Assembly: GCA_030149205.1 (NCBI GenBank)
Contig: JASBSB010000007.1
Location: forward strand, 150,001-182,000
Direction of reading: 5' to 3'
DNA: 32,000 nucleotides
Source: Candidatus Heimdallarchaeota archaeon
GTDB lineage: Archaea > Asgardarchaeota > Heimdallarchaeia > Heimdallarchaeales > Kariarchaeaceae
The notes under the pieces were generated by a model. That model saw only the letters and a program-made list of their open reading frames with translations, was not told the DNA's origin and did no database searches. Below are positions 12,299-21,116 of the stretch, piece after piece. The stretch's first letter is position 1; each line of letters starts with the position of its first letter. Made by a program: the position numbers and the translations under genes.

Positions 12299-13327
12299 TC
12301 AATTTTCTATTTTTAACTCAAACTTAAGCAAAAAGGTAGCAATAACTGACGCAATTGCAAGATAAAATACTACCAATATATGAGTGATGGTTGGTATGTT
12401 TAAAGCAAGCGAATCGGTGATTGGAAGGAAAAGCAACAAAATTTGAGCAACAAAAAATTCAAATGGTCCAAACGATCCCGGAGTAAAAGGTAAGATATAC
12501 GTAGAATAGCCTATGATTGCTGCAAAGGTAATTACTGTAAAATTAGATGGTGCACCTAATGTGATCGCAATAATTACAATTGTAGTAGATTCAATAAACC
12601 ATTGCAATGCTGAAAGAAGAAATATAAAAGAAAATAACTTTTTATCTCGAATTATTACAGAGACAGAGTGAACTACACCTCTTAACAAAGGAACTCCTTT
12701 GTTTAATATTGGTAGTTTACTTAATAAATTTTCAAAGAATATGGGAAATTTAAAAAGCAGACCGATCATCACAAAGCCGACTAACACCAAAACCATGAAT
12801 ATTATAATACTGAATCTGTATTTTTCAATCCCCAAAAATTGTGTCGCAGTCAGTATAAAGACCAACGCGGTGATGGCCAAGACAGTCATCAAACCGAGTA
12901 AATCAAAAAATTTCTCCATAATTATAGATGAGGTTGAATGTGAATATGCTGTCCCGTGTTCTTTAAGAATAATCAAACGTGAAAGTTCACCTAGCCTTGC
13001 AGGGAGTATCCCATTTTGTGCCCAGGCAATTAACGAAACTTTTGTTAGTAATGAATACTTATGATTGACATCAAGTGTTTGCAACAGTAATTTCCAGCGA
13101 ACCACTCTAATTAGCATGACAATTGAATAAATGAAAAAAACTGCAAGAAGTCCAAAAGGCCAAGATTTTTCAAGTCCGTTGACCAATTTATTAAAGCCTA
13201 TACTAACAATCAACCAATAGGCAATTAGTATCATGATGAGAAATGTTAGCCAAAATTTTACTGAATTATATTTTTTTGTTGTATCAATATCAGCAGATTG
13301 AATTGGACTCACAGAAGTTGACTCCAT
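12299..13327 (-). CDS. UPF0104 / lysylphosphatidylglycerol synthase transmembrane-domain (flippase-like) membrane protein
   Basis: About 8 TM helices; RVVRWKLLL, NGILPARLGELSR, EKFFDL and PFTPGSFGPFE. Confidence 0.85.
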   Translation of the reverse strand: MESTSVSPIQSADIDTTKKYNSVKFWLTFLIMILIAYWLIVSIGFNKLVNGLEKSWPFGLLAVFFIYSIVMLIRVVRWKLLLQTLDVNHKYSLLTKVSLIAWAQNGILPARLGELSRLIILKEHGTAYSHSTSSIIMEKFFDLLGLMTVLAITALVFILTATQFLGIEKYRFSIIIFMVLVLVGFVMIGLLFKFPIFFENLLSKLPILNKGVPLLRGVVHSVSVIIRDKKLFSFIFLLSALQWFIESTTIVIIAITLGAPSNFTVITFAAIIGYSTYILPFTPGSFGPFEFFVAQILLLFLPITDSLALNIPTITHILVVFYLAIASVIATFLLKFELKIEN

Positions 13328-13399: not shown

Positions 13400-14509
13400 T
13401 TATTCACTCTTGGCAAATTTGAATTTTCTAACTCTTGCTTCAAGTATAGAAGCTAAATTTGATAGCTCTGAAGTTGAAGCCACAAGTTCTTCCATCGTAG
13501 CGGTTTGTTCTTCTGCAGAGGCTGCAACCTCTTCTGATGCAGATGCTACATCTTGACTCACGTCCGATATTGAAGCAATTGCATTAGAAATATCTTCTTG
13601 CCCCATAACAATTTGATCTTGTATCTCTTGGATTACCTTTTCAATTTCTTCTGTATAGTTCCTTGAATCATCTGCTAGCCTTCTTACATTTTTCGCAACT
13701 ATCCCAAAACCTCTACCAGCATCTCCTGCCCTTTGGGCTTCTATTGCTGCATTTAGTGCTAGAAGGTTGGTTTCTTCTGAGATTCCTTGTGTCAATCCCA
13801 AAACCTCTTGAATTCTTTCAAATGATGATTTAATTATATTTCCAAGGTTTTCATTGGAAGACTTCGCATCGCTTGCTCGTTGTACTTGTGCCTGTGTTCC
13901 TTGAGAAATGTTTTCCATAATTGATGAGATTGTCTCACTGCTTGAACTCACTTCAGAACTAGAGGAAGCTATCTCTTCTGCTGTTGAAGCTACCCTGATA
14001 GCTGCTGATTGAATTTCTTCAATCAAACTTTTAATTTCTTGAACCATCAGTTTAAAACCTGCATAGAATTGATTTAATACATCTTCGTTGCTTAAATTTA
14101 TTATATTATCAGGCAAGTTTAAATTTCCTTGGGCAACCTCTTTTGAAACTTGATTTAATTGCAGGAAATAGAGGACTAAAACCTCTTTTATCCTTACAAA
14201 TATCCAATAGACTAGAATTCCATTTAAGAGCAATCCTATAATGATGTTAATCATTTCCTCAGTCAAACTACCAGTAGTAGATTGAATCTGAAAGTTTGAC
14301 CCTAGGTTTGCCTCTAATATTAATCCTAAGAAGATTAAAGGAAAGATCGAAACTGCGATCCTTGAGATAAGACTGTAGCCAAGAGAGTTTCTTCCATGTG
14401 TTCTCATTGAAACAACGAGAACCACAATATACAGGAGAATTGCAACTGCTGTTGCGTACCCCAATACAGTCCAGCTAACTTTGAAAAGACCGTAATTATC
14501 AATGATCAT
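13400..14509 (-). CDS. Methyl-accepting chemotaxis-like transducer (3 TM, HAMP, short signalling domain)
   Basis: [26 protein letters not shown] hairpin tip; EE-containing methylation helices; HAMP-like VAQGNL...EDVL segment. Confidence 0.9.
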
Positions 14510-14650
14510 AATTTGTTAATAAAATTGTTCTTAATCAATTTTTGCCATAAAAAAGAAAATAATTACAGTTGTTCATAAAAAAATATCGAATTAAACTACC
14601 CTAGTTAAATAGAGATTTTAATAAACTCTAAATCATCAGTTGGTTTATTT

Positions 14651-15796
14651 ATGAAGATTTCAAATAATTTGAGCAACGTGTCTGGGTCTGTTACTGCTCA
14701 GATTTTTGCAGAAACAAAGAGACTTCAACGTCTTGGTCAGAAGATTCTAAACTTATCAATCGGACAACCAAAATACCCTCCAATTAATCCAGTCTTAGAG
14801 AGTATTAGTTCAGCTGTGTTAGAAGGTAAAGTACAATATTCAGAAAGTAAGGGAATAATTGAACTAAGAGAGGCAATCAATAATTACTATGGACGAAATA
14901 ATGATCCAGAGAAAGAAATTATTGTTACTGCTGGTGGAAAAATTGGTATTTTTGCTTCCTTGTGGGCAGTTTGTAACCCAGGTGACAATGTCGTAATTTT
15001 AAATCCTTCATGGGTCAGTTACAAAGATATAGTAGGTAGTTTAGGATGCGAACCTAGGTTTATCCAAGTTGATGATGATTTTAGGTTTGATGAGGAAAGA
15101 TTAAGAAAGGTAATTGATGGTAAAACCAAGGCGATTGTTGTAAATTCCCCCTGTAACCCAACAGGTGCAATTATAAGTGAAAAAAATCTTTCAGATTTAT
15201 ACAGAATTTGTTTGGAATTTGATCTATTATTAATCAGTGATGAAATTTATAACGAGTATACCTACGATAGCAATAAATTCACATCGTTGACTTCAATTAA
15301 AAATTGGAAAGAAAATGGAGTTATAATTAATGGGTTTTCAAAGACCTTTTCAATGACAGGGCTTCGATTGGGCTATACTTTGACAAATGAAAAGATTTCT
15401 AAAGAAATCAATAAAGTTATGCAACTAACCGCAAGTTGTGCCCCACTACCTTCTCAAATTGGAGGGGTTAAGGCATTAGAAACAATAGATGAAACAAGAG
15501 CATACTTTAAACCAATAGTTAAGAAAAATCGAGAACTAATGATAAAATTAAGTAAAGAGATTGATGGATTAGTACTGTTCCCACCTCATGGTGCGATCTA
15601 TGGATGGTATAGAATTGAAGGAGAATCAGATTCTGCTGCTTGGGCTTCAAATCTGTTATCAAATGAAAGGGTTGCAGTAACGCCTGGCATTGGATTTGGT
15701 CCTGCAGGAGAAGGGTTCTTTAGAATTTGTTTTGCTGTAGATCAAGAAACTTTAGAAGATGGAATCACACAAATTGGAAAATTTGTCATGAGATAA
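14651..15796 (+). CDS. Class I/II PLP-dependent aminotransferase (aspartate aminotransferase-like)
   Basis: VNSPCNPTG, SDEIY and NGFSKTFSMTGLRLGY (PLP lysine). Confidence 0.93.
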   Translation: MKISNNLSNVSGSVTAQIFAETKRLQRLGQKILNLSIGQPKYPPINPVLESISSAVLEGKVQYSESKGIIELREAINNYYGRNNDPEKEIIVTAGGKIGIFASLWAVCNPGDNVVILNPSWVSYKDIVGSLGCEPRFIQVDDDFRFDEERLRKVIDGKTKAIVVNSPCNPTGAIISEKNLSDLYRICLEFDLLLISDEIYNEYTYDSNKFTSLTSIKNWKENGVIINGFSKTFSMTGLRLGYTLTNEKISKEINKVMQLTASCAPLPSQIGGVKALETIDETRAYFKPIVKKNRELMIKLSKEIDGLVLFPPHGAIYGWYRIEGESDSAAWASNLLSNERVAVTPGIGFGPAGEGFFRICFAVDQETLEDGITQIGKFVMR

Positions 15797-15807
15797 ATTT
15801 ACTAATA

Positions 15808-15830
15808 GACGCGCGACATTGTCGCGCGTC
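15808..15830. repeat. Perfect 23-bp palindrome GACGCGCGACA-T-TGTCGCGCGTC
   Basis: 11-bp inverted arms around a single T, read directly from the sequence. It contains two CGCGCG hexamers in AT-rich surroundings. Confidence 0.95.
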
Positions 15831-16023
15831 ATATCGCGAAAATGTTTGCATACTTTCATCATTAATAAAATGACATTTTTTGTTAAATTTAAGGATTTCC
15901 TTTATTTTTTCACTATTTTTTCCTAGAATATTTCGAGCCAAACCTATAAAAAAGGCGGGTTAACACTCTAGAAAAGGAATATCAAGAATTTGTGGTTAGA
16001 GAGCAAATAGCAATATTTTGAGT

Positions 16024-16038
16024 CAAAATGTTTATAGA
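16024..16038 (+). promoter_or_regulatory. Putative archaeal BRE/TATA promoter of the E2F/DP-like gene
   Basis: CAAAATG followed by TTTATAGA about 70 nt upstream of the ATG at 16104; SD-like AGGTGG at 16094-16099. Confidence 0.45.
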
Positions 16039-16103
16039 GTAGAAAGAGAGCTGTTACTTAGTGCTTATAACGATGAATATCGATTAAGTGCATAGGTGGG
16101 ATT

Positions 16104-16469
16104 ATGAAATTAAAAGAAATAGCTGATCAGGCGATTAATGTCATCAAAACAAGAGGAACCGAAGGGATTAACAATGCAGAGCTTGCAGAAATTGTTGGAA
16201 CGCCAAAAAGAAGAGTCTACGATGTTATTGCAATCTTACGAGCTGCAAATTTAATTACAACAGAAAGAGATGGAGCTGGAACTAAAATTTTTTGGCTTGA
16301 AAAAGATGAAACTTATAAAGAAGAGGTACAACCCCAGACCTCATTCTTCACTAGCAAATTAAAGGTATCAACTGATGGTCAAATCTACAATGTTGCAAAT
16401 CGTGGTTCTGAAGTTGTGATCGAGTTAGATGATGAAGCAAAACTATCTATTGAACCAATACTTGAATAA
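16104..16469 (+). CDS. E2F/DP-family winged-helix DNA-binding protein
   Basis: ELAEIVGTPKRRVYDVIAILRAANLITTE...KIFW matches the E2F/DP recognition helix (E2F4 KRRIYDITNVLEGIGLI...IQW; DP1 RRRVYDALNVLMAMNII...IKW). RRVYD is at 16209-16223. Confidence 0.8.
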   Translation: MKLKEIADQAINVIKTRGTEGINNAELAEIVGTPKRRVYDVIAILRAANLITTERDGAGTKIFWLEKDETYKEEVQPQTSFFTSKLKVSTDGQIYNVANRGSEVVIELDDEAKLSIEPILE

Positions 16470-17993: not shown

Positions 17994-20900
17994 TTACAGT
18001 AATTGGATTAATTCATCAAAAGAAAAGGCAAGGGTCGTTATGTGATGAGGGTATGTACTAATTAGATCGAACATCTCGTGAATCTTTTTATGAAGTAAGG
18101 AGGATTCGTTTAAAATTGCGAGAGGGGTACTTAAAAATTCTAATAACATTGTCCTAATCTGATTTAGAAAACCCTCATCAATTCTAAAGAAATTGATTGC
18201 CTGTCCAACTAAATAAATTACTAAAAATAGCTGTGGATTAACAGATCTTGCTTTTATCATCTCTTTTTTATACTTTAAGAGCTGTTGTTCAAAATTTCGG
18301 ATAAAGGTTATTTCATCCTCTATTAAACTATAAAACCTTATTTCATCAATTGATTTTTTAAAGCTTTCATATTCAGGGGAACTCCTCAATTTTTTAATTT
18401 GAATTTCACGAAAGAATCTGTGAAAAACGGAAATATTTGAATTATACGCGTCAGGAAAGGAATGCTTACCCCTTAAAATTGTTTCAGTTAATATTAAAAA
18501 TTGTTGGCCAAACCTATCATTCTCAGATTCTAAATTTTGTAAGTTCTCAAAAAAATCTAAGGTATTTTCAAGGATCTTTTCAATGTTATCAGGTGTGTAT
18601 TTATAATTATTTCTTAGAATTATCTCAAATTTTTCATTGAATTTATTGATGGTAATTTTAGATTTAATCCTTAGATTCAAAATCTCAAAATAGATGTGAT
18701 TTTGCTCCTCTACTAATCCCCTTATCTGCCTTTTTAATTCAGAGTTAACACTAAATGATATGGATTCGGAAAGCAATTCAAATGCATTTTCTAATTGAGA
18801 ATCTTCAATTAAAGAATTAACCAGGGATCTATAATTTAATAAAACATTTTTTGGTTTTGCCACCTCTTTTGAAATCTCTAAAGCTTGTTTTTTTAGGTTC
18901 AGTATCTCTGTGTCAGGTACAATACTAGGGTCATGGGCAGATATTTTTATCATTGATGTTAACAAATCATAAGTCTGTTTAGAAGATTGGGAATGCACAA
19001 TTTGCTCTTTTAATACCTCAAATGCGATCTTATTAAATCCTGAATCGATAAGTCTCTCTATTAACCTATTAAGCTCATTCTCCCAATCGTCAAAATGATC
19101 CTTGTATAAATTTACTTTTTTTATCGTCAAATCTTTTAATAATCGTTGATCTCCTCTGTTTTGTGCAATGATTAAACCAATTTCATACAAATTGGGGTAT
19201 GTGTCAATTAAGCGTTCGTCAACTGGTATTTCGATAATGTCTGATATAATATCGGCTGTAAACTCTAATTTATGCAGTTCATTATTCTCAATTGTGATGT
19301 TAATTAACTCTAGTAAAATACTAAGAGCAATTTTGTTAACTGATTGGTTTTGCAGATTGTCAAAAATCAGGACTCTTAATATTTTTTTAAGGAAAGCTGA
19401 TTGTCGAAACTCAAAGGAGACTGTTATTAATCTCAGCACAAGGGGCTTTATTTTGTCAGGTGATTCAGTGGAGAGAAGATAATTAAGAACAGAATCTAAA
19501 AAGGTGGTTGCATCTTGGTAATTTTCCTCTTCTACTGCCAACTCATAGAGTTTACCATCTATATAAATTGTTAACTCATAAAATTCACCAAATTCAGAAA
19601 CATATTTCTGTATTAGCTTTAAGGTATCAAATTGATCTAACATTGGAGCTTTCCCAATATTCTTTGCAATGAAGGTGGAAAAGTCTAAGATAAGTAATTT
19701 TTCTTTATTTGATATAAGTACCTGATAAATCAAATTTAATTGAGAAACTAGGTGACCCCCAGCAGGAGAATTTTCAATTAATTTCAACAAATTGTTGTGA
19801 AACAACTCAATATAATCCCGTTTGTTATCCTCAATAATATTTAAAGCCCAGGTAAATGATTCAGTTATATCAATCACAGCCTCTTCATCGCTTGAAAAGT
19901 TTGATGTTAAAAATCTGGTTTCGACCGCATTTTGAATTTCTCCCAACTTCAGGTACATTTCAGTTAAAGTAAGTATTCCATCATAATCACGTAACAAATG
20001 TTTTTCAAAGCTTTCCTTTATAAAAATAAATAGCTTTAATTCTTCATCTGATTCAAATTTAAGGGCGTATAATACTGCTTGAACAAAGTTTACCTGTTGA
20101 GATATTGACCATGGTTGAATTAGTAAAACAAGATCTTTTAATAAAATAATCTTTTCTGTAAAATCATCAAGCCGTAGGGCTAAATCCAATGTTTTCCCAA
20201 ACAACGCATAGCAGTGGCTCTTATCTTCTTCGTTATATAATAAATATAGGAGATTTAATAATTCCTTCTTGTAATTAAGTATATTAATTGGCACATTAAT
20301 GGAACTCTCTATTGAATCTTTGAGTTGCAACTTAAAGTAGTTCAAATTTATTTGTTCCAATAGTTTTGAATTTTCTATATAAAAGAGTAGATTTGAGTTT
20401 TTAGCTGTTAATAATAAGGTTTGATCCATCAGAGGGAGAAGATTCTCAGAGAGTTGATCCAATTCAGATCTTGGAGTAGATAATAATTTTGAAAGAAAAT
20501 TAATAAACCATAATCTAATTATATCTTCTTCATGTGATAAACCGTCTCGAAGTGTTTTTAGAATGTTGTTTATTTCAGGTGAGTTAGAAGGAAAAATTTC
20601 AAGTAATGCGTAATCATTACTTAAAGTAAATGAGAGTCGTTTTATGAATGGTTTCAGCTGTAGATTTTTTAAAATAAGATTCCAAAAACCAGAAATGAAT
20701 AAATCTATACCATTAATTTTGATTTTAATGTTTTGTAAACTTAATATAGACTCATCTATTTCATTATATTCCCACAGGTTGTTTGGTACGTAAGAATTAT
20801 TTGCTATTTCTAGGATTGAATCAATTTGAGATATGGGGGTTGTGTAGAACAACCAATTCTTGTAAATAAAAAGCATTAGATCTTCATTTTCAGGGGGCAA

Positions 20901-21116
20901 TGCAAAAAGAGTTTGAAGAAATCCAATTTCTAATGCACTCTCCCAAAATATACTGATGTAGTAATTACCAGAAGAAAAAAAAGTTATCCCAGTCTGAGAT
21001 TTATCAATATTATTCGTTAAATTATTACAAACATTAACAAGATTATCAGAGGGTGAAGCTAACCAATTTATTGTTATTTGACTATCAACTTTAGTTAATG
21101 TTCCATAAAAACTCAA
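17994..21116 (-). CDS. Large hypothetical protein: putative longin-like N-terminal domain plus long alpha-helical solenoid
   Basis: 1040-aa ORF rich in L/I/E/K amphipathic helices with no TM segments; start overlaps the upstream stop by 4 bp. The domain calls are inference only. Confidence 0.7.
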   Translation of the reverse strand: MSFYGTLTKVDSQITINWLASPSDNLVNVCNNLTNNIDKSQTGITFFSSGNYYISIFWESALEIGFLQTLFALPPENEDLMLFIYKNWLFYTTPISQIDSILEIANNSYVPNNLWEYNEIDESILSLQNIKIKINGIDLFISGFWNLILKNLQLKPFIKRLSFTLSNDYALLEIFPSNSPEINNILKTLRDGLSHEEDIIRLWFINFLSKLLSTPRSELDQLSENLLPLMDQTLLLTAKNSNLLFYIENSKLLEQINLNYFKLQLKDSIESSINVPINILNYKKELLNLLYLLYNEEDKSHCYALFGKTLDLALRLDDFTEKIILLKDLVLLIQPWSISQQVNFVQAVLYALKFESDEELKLFIFIKESFEKHLLRDYDGILTLTEMYLKLGEIQNAVETRFLTSNFSSDEEAVIDITESFTWALNIIEDNKRDYIELFHNNLLKLIENSPAGGHLVSQLNLIYQVLISNKEKLLILDFSTFIAKNIGKAPMLDQFDTLKLIQKYVSEFGEFYELTIYIDGKLYELAVEEENYQDATTFLDSVLNYLLSTESPDKIKPLVLRLITVSFEFRQSAFLKKILRVLIFDNLQNQSVNKIALSILLELINITIENNELHKLEFTADIISDIIEIPVDERLIDTYPNLYEIGLIIAQNRGDQRLLKDLTIKKVNLYKDHFDDWENELNRLIERLIDSGFNKIAFEVLKEQIVHSQSSKQTYDLLTSMIKISAHDPSIVPDTEILNLKKQALEISKEVAKPKNVLLNYRSLVNSLIEDSQLENAFELLSESISFSVNSELKRQIRGLVEEQNHIYFEILNLRIKSKITINKFNEKFEIILRNNYKYTPDNIEKILENTLDFFENLQNLESENDRFGQQFLILTETILRGKHSFPDAYNSNISVFHRFFREIQIKKLRSSPEYESFKKSIDEIRFYSLIEDEITFIRNFEQQLLKYKKEMIKARSVNPQLFLVIYLVGQAINFFRIDEGFLNQIRTMLLEFLSTPLAILNESSLLHKKIHEMFDLISTYPHHITTLAFSFDELIQLL

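Follow-up and report, generated by a model that had tools for sequence, protein, structure and literature searches.

In the spacer upstream of a gene for an E2F/DP-family winged-helix protein, a perfect 23-bp palindrome bearing two CGCGCG cores was found, and on balance this palindrome probably constitutes a cluster of E2F-type sites (core SGCGCS) that would be bound by homodimers of the adjacent protein and would regulate the protein's own gene. Conserved sites with CGCG/GCGC cores cluster in the upstream control region of the E2F-like gene, and the palindrome appears to be the form that this cluster takes locally. A double E2F/DP-type site had been the interpretation offered in the preliminary description of this DNA, and it was the best-supported one in the sequence comparisons described herein; it would amount to transcription-factor autoregulation via E2F-type sites, here in an archaeon. 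The comparisons covered the 32-kb window (the whole stretch of DNA analyzed) and eight lineages, namely four genomes of one genus (the source genome G000, a 3.3-Mb assembly of 12 contigs with ~35% GC, and its sister genomes G001, G002, and G003) and the lineages L226, L228, L229/L230, and L231.

Sequence and rarity of the palindrome

The palindrome, GACGCGCGACA-T-TGTCGCGCGTC, consists of two 11-nt arms that are 100% complementary around one central base, and each of its cores is flanked by TGT on the inner side and by AGA/TCA on the outer side. Its inner 17 bp, GCGCGACAWTGTCGCGC, is invariant across the genus. Together with the third site listed in Table 1, whose counterparts are (T)ATCGCGA in G001 and G003 and ATCGCGAAA in L226, the palindrome forms one cluster of CGCG words. 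In the window, CGCGCG occurs only at 15810 and 15823, with 0.05 occurrences expected from shuffled sequences. CGCG was counted nine times, of which five fall at 15810-15838 and the others at 12866, 18447, 22764, and 24826. The sequence and coordinates of the 23-bp palindrome and the 13-bp spacing of its cores, its start 11 nt past the aminotransferase stop (ORF end at 15796), the five clustered and four isolated CGCG words, and the lack of a following U-tract had all been recorded in the preliminary description; each was reproduced exactly, the full count giving identical CGCG positions and the terminator scan agreeing. The small ORFs in the spacer were short.

Table 1. Features of the aminotransferase/E2F-like locus (window coordinates; a dot marks features given without a strand)
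Feature	Position	Strand	Remarks
Class I/II aminotransferase gene	14651..15796	+	Pfam E = 3e-57; conserved neighbor of the E2F-like gene
Palindrome	15808..15830	.	two CGCGCG cores, 15810-15815 and 15823-15828, 13 bp center to center
Third site ATCGCGAAAA	15833..15842	.	TCGCGA at 15834-15839; reverse strand TTTTCGCGA
Conserved TTCATCA block	15854..15863	.	3' of the cluster; aligns in the genus and L231
Distal TATA-like word AAATTTAAGG, then run TTTATTTTTTCAC	15885..15913	+	conserved in the genus, recognizable in L226-L231
Second GC-word group	15931..15959	.	TTTCGAGCCAAA (15931-15942) and GGCGGG (15954-15959)
Proximal TATA-like box AATGTTTATAGAG	16027..16039	+	~70 nt before the start codon
Leader	16045..16103	+	hairpin (dyad 16071-16084); Shine-Dalgarno-like AGGTGGG (16094-16100)
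E2F/DP-family winged-helix gene	16104..16469	+	121 aa; RRxYD; beta-rich C-terminal domain

On the genomic scale (3.3 Mb), CGCGCG was found 5 times and CGCG 537 times, with a CpG observed/expected ratio of 0.46; the rarity of CGCG matched this CpG depletion (Markov ratio 0.90). The palindrome holds two of the five CGCGCG hexamers, and the other three were located in a tRNA gene, in a tRNA-like stretch, and in a GC hairpin preceding a T-run. At least two CGCG words within 40 bp were found at 16 places genome-wide, and at least three at the palindrome locus only, which has five. When whole genomes were searched for three close CGCG words, this locus was likewise the only match in G000 and G003, and G001 gave that locus and one other. 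Among the approximately 30 perfect palindromes of the source genome with arms of at least 10 nt, the present one was the most GC-rich (8 of 11 positions per arm G or C; next best, 5), and the genome contained no second copy of the 23-mer at up to 3 mismatches. The palindrome is far beyond chance.

The genome-wide CGCG count and the search for other copies of the 23-mer, both proposed in the preliminary description, thus returned a single copy per genome in the genus and no sign of repeat dispersal. A dispersed repeat of the REP/MITE type was ruled out by this single copy and by its absence from 43 other genomes of the order, and a CRISPR repeat or transposon end was rejected because the palindrome is single-copy. 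In the annotated neighboring genes, none of the Orc1/Cdc6 or ParA/ParB domains that would suggest a replication origin or an AspA/ParB-type centromere was found.

Two further observations concern the composition of the source genome. GCGC and GGCC were its most avoided 4-bp palindromes, and genes for C5 and N6/N4 DNA methylases were present. On contig C4, positions 178875-178900 read AGCGCGCGCT followed by a T run; this stretch, which holds one of the three other CGCGCG hexamers mentioned above, resembles a GC hairpin with an oligo-T terminator.

Linkage to the E2F-like gene and turnover of the sites

The 17-bp core was found once in each of the four genus genomes, where it precedes the E2F-like start codon by about 285-313 bp in every case, and was absent at up to 2 mismatches from the 43 other genomes of the order. 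A metagenome scan with the 17-mer gave at least 80 chance matches, 77 of them in DNA of at least 50% GC, and no E2F-like gene lay nearby among the matches listed. When the G000 spacer was aligned pairwise with those of G001, G002, G003, and L231, the top local-alignment segment was in each case the palindrome. Such conservation within an otherwise unalignable spacer makes it very unlikely indeed that the palindrome is a chance or neutral relic without function, and its rarity, its single copy throughout the genus, its rank as the GC-richest palindrome, and the CGCG/TCGCG enrichment given below likewise argue against a relic.

The surroundings of the palindrome proved less stable than its association with the E2F-like gene. 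The aminotransferase gene is co-directional with the E2F-like gene in G000 and the four outgroup lineages and inverted in G001-G003, where it is orthologous to that of G000 (59% identity, best match in the genome). The four distant lineages, with E2F-like proteins of 59-67% identity, keep the G000 order of MCP gene, aminotransferase gene, 300-490 bp spacer, and E2F-like gene. The gene 3' of the E2F-like gene also differs, being an M17 peptidase gene in G000 and genes for ribosomal proteins L6 and S8 in G001-G003. In the aminotransferase tree, G000 branched basally in the genus clade (support 100/99), and because the inverted genomes nest within this clade, the inversion was taken to be derived. 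L231, which falls in the other clade of that tree, carries the palindrome core in a shorter palindrome.

These arrangements bear on a possible role of the palindrome as an RNA hairpin that would terminate or stabilize the aminotransferase mRNA at its 3' end. The 10-bp hairpin with a 3-nt loop envisaged in the preliminary description was borne out by folding (-19.3 kcal/mol, z = -3.05). It would form just past the aminotransferase stop, and the clusters of L228 and L229 also follow this stop closely, but a 3'-end role was disfavored. The palindrome is still conserved in G001-G003, where it precedes the aminotransferase start rather than following the stop, and in L231 it lies ~200 nt beyond the stop. 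Since the palindrome stays with the E2F-like gene despite the inversion and the altered neighbors, it would not serve the aminotransferase 3' end. In addition, neither the terminator scan nor the sequence itself revealed a terminator-like site or T-run 3' of the palindrome, and no Rfam covariance model matched it (the one match elsewhere in the stretch was at chance level, E = 0.31). The clusters of L226, L228, L229, and L231 folded no better or only marginally better than shuffled sequences (z -0.1 to -2.0), so that among the lineages compared a significantly stable hairpin was formed in this genus only. An RNA-level function is accordingly regarded as improbable.

The distant lineages were shown to carry CGCG words at a similar position in different layouts. 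L229/L230 has four tandem TTCGCGCA-type units with a 9-bp period at -320 to -292, L228 has four TCGCG words at -299 to -268, and L226 has two TCGCG words, CTCGCGCTAATCGCGAAA, at -279 to -269; in L226, L228, and L229 the ACA/TGT spacer is gone and the CGCG words are kept. In every lineage, CGCG was enriched in the -340..-250 window relative to its own flanks, with Poisson P values of 5e-3 to 1e-11 that overstate independence, as the lineages are related and four belong to one genus. Over the eight spacers, the density of TCGCG was 13.3 per kb, ~40 times the 0.31 per kb counted in flanks totaling 35 kb, and that of TSGCGC was 5.6 against 0.08 per kb. These differing layouts show the CGCG words to have been maintained, not simply inherited as one block.

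The same layouts weigh on the idea of a structural DNA element (a cruciform, short Z-DNA, or a recombination hotspot) that acts without any sequence-specific reader and might be linked to the inversion whose breakpoint adjoins the palindrome. In favor of this idea, the palindrome is a perfect dyad with alternating CG runs, the inversion by which G001-G003 differ from G000 has one breakpoint no more than 11 bp away, and the asymmetric base at the center, T in G000 and L231, is A in the inverted genomes. The 6-bp CG runs are short for Z-DNA, however, the palindrome element is conserved also where the inversion is absent, and L226, L228, and L229 drop the dyad symmetry and retain the CGCG words. 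The cruciform envisaged in the preliminary description was therefore disfavored, what is conserved being the CGCG word and its position and not the dyad. This pattern points to a sequence-specific DNA reader, and a purely structural role is considered highly improbable.

The arrangement appears to be a feature of one Heimdall subclade and not of Asgard archaea in general, since TCGCG was not enriched upstream of 69 E2F-like loci in other Asgard lineages (0.63 vs 0.5-0.85 per kb elsewhere), where the median spacer is 95 bp. A twofold CGCG excess upstream of Asgard E2F-like genes, suggested by an earlier raw count, was not upheld, as much of it lay in apparent coding sequence of neighboring genes.

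The E2F/DP-like protein as the putative reader

E2F homologues are reported in Asgard genomes, among eukaryotic signature proteins, in a passage of PMC7617429 that cites Spang 2015 and Zaremba-Niedzwiedzka 2017, and the gene at 16104-16469 belongs to that family by its sequence. In the literature searched, Asgard E2F homologues were treated in terms of gene presence only, and no DNA target, cis element, or binding test was found there. The encoded protein matched Pfam PF02319 (E2F_TDP) with 31.9 bits against a curated cut-off of 25.7; this was the only PF02319 match in the genome, and no separate DP partner was found in it. The residues R36, R37, Y39, and D40 of the RRxYD motif were invariant in 17 aligned sequences. 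A profile built from these relatives further matched the DNA-binding domains in the solved structures of E2F8 (4yo2) and E2F4 (1cf7), and the recognition helices aligned in register. The nearest public relatives were found in Heimdallarchaeota MAGs, and the wider family in Thor-, Jord-, Frey-, and Hermod-archaeota. Among the annotated neighbors (MCP, aminotransferase, and E2F-like genes), a DNA-binding domain is encoded by the E2F-like gene only. Farther along in the window, the minus strand at 17994-21116 carries a 1040-aa ORF with no Pfam match at E = 1e-3 or better.

Structural modeling supported a homodimer. The model passed the mark with a score of 0.43 (best control, 0.02); of 30 proteins solved as pairs, 20 reach this mark, and of 23 solved as single chains, 1 does. 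The runs agreed in at least 86% of contacts with a partner pLDDT of at least 75, and the modeled interface was made up of helices 1 and 3 and of residues 78-119, the C-terminal beta domain. Because E2F-DP complexes have been solved, this pass may partly reflect memory of, or likeness to, those structures.

In the E2F4-DP2-DNA structure, the RRxYD motifs of two winged helices reportedly read the symmetric core SGCGCS. By analogy, the 121-aa protein is proposed to dimerize through helices 1 and 3 together with its C-terminal beta domain, whereby the pair of RRxYD recognition helices in each dimer would read one symmetric SGCGCS core, like eukaryotic E2F-DP. Two or three dimers would then sit side by side on the pair of CGCGCG cores, spaced by 13 bp, and on the weaker TCGCGA another 11 bp along, and their occupancy would act as feedback on the protein's own gene as it is transcribed from the downstream TATA-like boxes. 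In this scheme we infer which factor binds, in what stoichiometry, whether it activates or represses, and which promoter responds.

The fit of the sites to the E2F recognition sequence was good in the core and incomplete in the flanks. CGCGCG at 15810 and 15823 conforms to SGCGCS, and GCGC is invariant at both ends of the 17-mer in the genus. A T-rich 5' flank (TTT) is absent at the palindrome and present in L229/L230 and L231; the protein is without the N-terminal arm with which E2F4 reads TTT. The relatives' words TTTCGCGC, TTTGGCGC, and TTTCCCGC fit the full consensus TTTSGCGC/TTTSSCGC. Against the E2F reading, many of the relatives' sites are TCGCGA, which has CGCG but lies out of the GCGC register of SGCGCS. 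The E2F/DP-type site proposed in the preliminary description was thus partly supported, by the SGCGCS cores, the linkage to the E2F-like gene, and the turnover of layouts, and was weakened by the missing TTT flank and the distal position.

The perfectly conserved spacer GACAWTGTC would also suit a classical dimer on two 8-bp half-sites, GCGCGACA / TGTCGCGC. The palindrome could on this basis be the operator of a different DNA-binding protein that controls the E2F-like gene, with the divergent aminotransferase gene of G001-G003 as a possible second target. This spacer is conserved as well as the cores, the half-site centers lie ~9 bp apart, as suits an ordinary helix-turn-helix dimer, the palindrome of G001-G003 sits ~55 bp upstream of the aminotransferase TATA-like word, and further CGCG clusters were found at other loci. 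On the other hand, L226, L228, and L229 lose the ACA/TGT spacer and keep the CGCG words only, a DNA-binding domain is found in the E2F-like gene only among the annotated conserved neighbors, and the E2F family is the one known for reading GCGC cores. An operator of another factor is therefore considered rather unlikely.

The autoregulatory E2F reading also has to accommodate the distance of the cluster from the promoter. The palindrome is in the control region of the presumed regulator's own gene and is conserved with it, as would be expected of an autoregulatory operator. Archaeal operators normally abut or overlap BRE/TATA; the cluster is unusually far for a simple archaeal operator, lying ~210 bp upstream of the proximal TATA-like box and ~290 bp from the start codon, and a distal promoter or looping must be assumed owing to this distance from the proximal promoter. 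The proximal box, kept as ATGTTTATAG or TTTAATA in 8/8 lineages, is likely the core promoter of the E2F-like gene. The weaker distal TATA-like word is located ~55-70 bp downstream of the cluster, and its block at 15885..15913 could be either an oligo-T terminator or a distal promoter. Weaker GC words (GAGCGCC, GACGCGG, TTTGGCGGG) form the second group, 130-200 bp before the start, which reads TTTGGAGCCAAA ... TTTGGCGGG(AAA) in the sister genomes, with TTTCCCGC on the reverse strand.

Other parts of the spacer were also found to be structured. A direct repeat, 15927-15942 (AATATTTCGAGCCAAA) and 16012-16027 (AATATTTTGAGTCAAA), has copies that are 88% identical and 85 bp apart, the second of which adjoins the proximal TATA-like box. 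The leader hairpin gave fold z-scores of -2.0 to -4.3 in the genus, where its arms vary and stay complementary (CGATGA/TCATCG, TGATGA/TCATCA); the leader hairpins of L226, L228, and L229 are of wholly different sequence.

Eukaryotic E2F/DP sites read TTTSGCGCS with the symmetric core SGCGCS, and the E2F1 promoter is autoregulated through paired E2F sites. The locus described herein resembles them in that CGCGCG fits SGCGCS, multiple sites lie upstream of the factor's own gene, and an RRxYD protein is encoded adjacently. It differs in its archaeal host, in its single 121-aa protein without a coiled coil or pocket-protein region, and in the palindrome's lack of a TTT flank and its ~210-bp distance from the TATA-like box. 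Archaeal winged-helix regulators of the Lrp/AsnC, TrmB, and MarR types use palindromic operators near BRE/TATA that are usually AT-rich. The likeness to such autoregulatory operators lies in a dyad-symmetric site upstream of the own gene of a dimeric (modeled) winged-helix protein, and the difference in the distal position of the palindrome, its CG core, and the tandem arrays that replace it in relatives. In yeast, MBF/SBF regulation involves the MCB element ACGCGT at G1/S genes, and the DNA-binding family of MBF is APSES; the clustered CGCG-core word is shared, but APSES is unrelated to E2F, and the comparison is an analogy only.

The locus offers a sharply defined candidate target, 23 bp in length with two ideal cores of a hexamer almost absent from the genome, and the tandem arrays and weaker sites of the relatives provide natural variants as built-in controls. 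If the element is bound by the adjacent protein, the E2F recognition code and E2F autoregulation would be older than eukaryotes; if it is not, the element would still be among the best-conserved non-coding sequences of the clade and would mark another regulator.

Further CGCG clusters and candidate targets

A second cluster was located on contig C4 of G000 at 423558-423725, with four CGCG words including the palindromic, E2F-like TTTCGCGGGAAA, in a spacer of 415 bp whose flanking genes encode an N6/N4 DNA methylase and a fused IcmF-like B12 mutase. The positions of the words match between G000 and G003 (-317/-306, -289/-278, -237/-226, and -150/-151); in G001 and G007 the DNA upstream of the IcmF-like gene is unrelated. 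This second positionally conserved cluster fits a sequence-specific factor that would have more than one target.

In eukaryotes, the genes for ribonucleotide reductase (RNR) are among the classic targets of E2F/MBF. In the region upstream of the class II RNR gene (contig C8:99476-99810 in G000), G000, G001, and G003 each have pairs of GCGC cores that precede the conserved MTE start by ~300-330 bp; G003 has TTGGGCGCCCCAA and the reverse complement of TTTTGGCGCG, and G000 has three further CGCG words. Having been chosen after its annotation was seen, this locus serves as a lead and not as a result. Likewise to be taken as a lead are the small counts of intergenic sites in G000, some of which may sit in intron-containing tRNA genes missed by aragorn: of 33 SGCGCS hexamers, 14 of the 29 outside RNA genes were intergenic, as were 9 of 19 TTTSGCGC words, compared with 17% intergenic DNA. 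No clear extended motif emerged around intergenic as compared with coding CGCG sites in this genome.

On these leads, a bolder proposal can be framed, in which the Asgard E2F-like protein already uses the eukaryotic code (RRxYD reading SGCGCS), autoregulates via an enhancer-like cluster subject to turnover, and controls a small regulon including the RNR and IcmF-like genes. As judged from sequence, this combined proposal is doubtful; if true, the link from E2F to nucleotide supply would predate eukaryotes.

ACGCG(T/A) words were also found at several loci. In G008, a 4.4-Mb genome of the same family, the sole three-CGCG match was located on contig C550 at 14500-14527 and consists of three ATCGCGAT words in a 465-bp AT-rich spacer, which adjoins small ORFs without a known family. 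These words are flanked by repeated TCATCAAT, like the TTCATCA block beside the palindrome.
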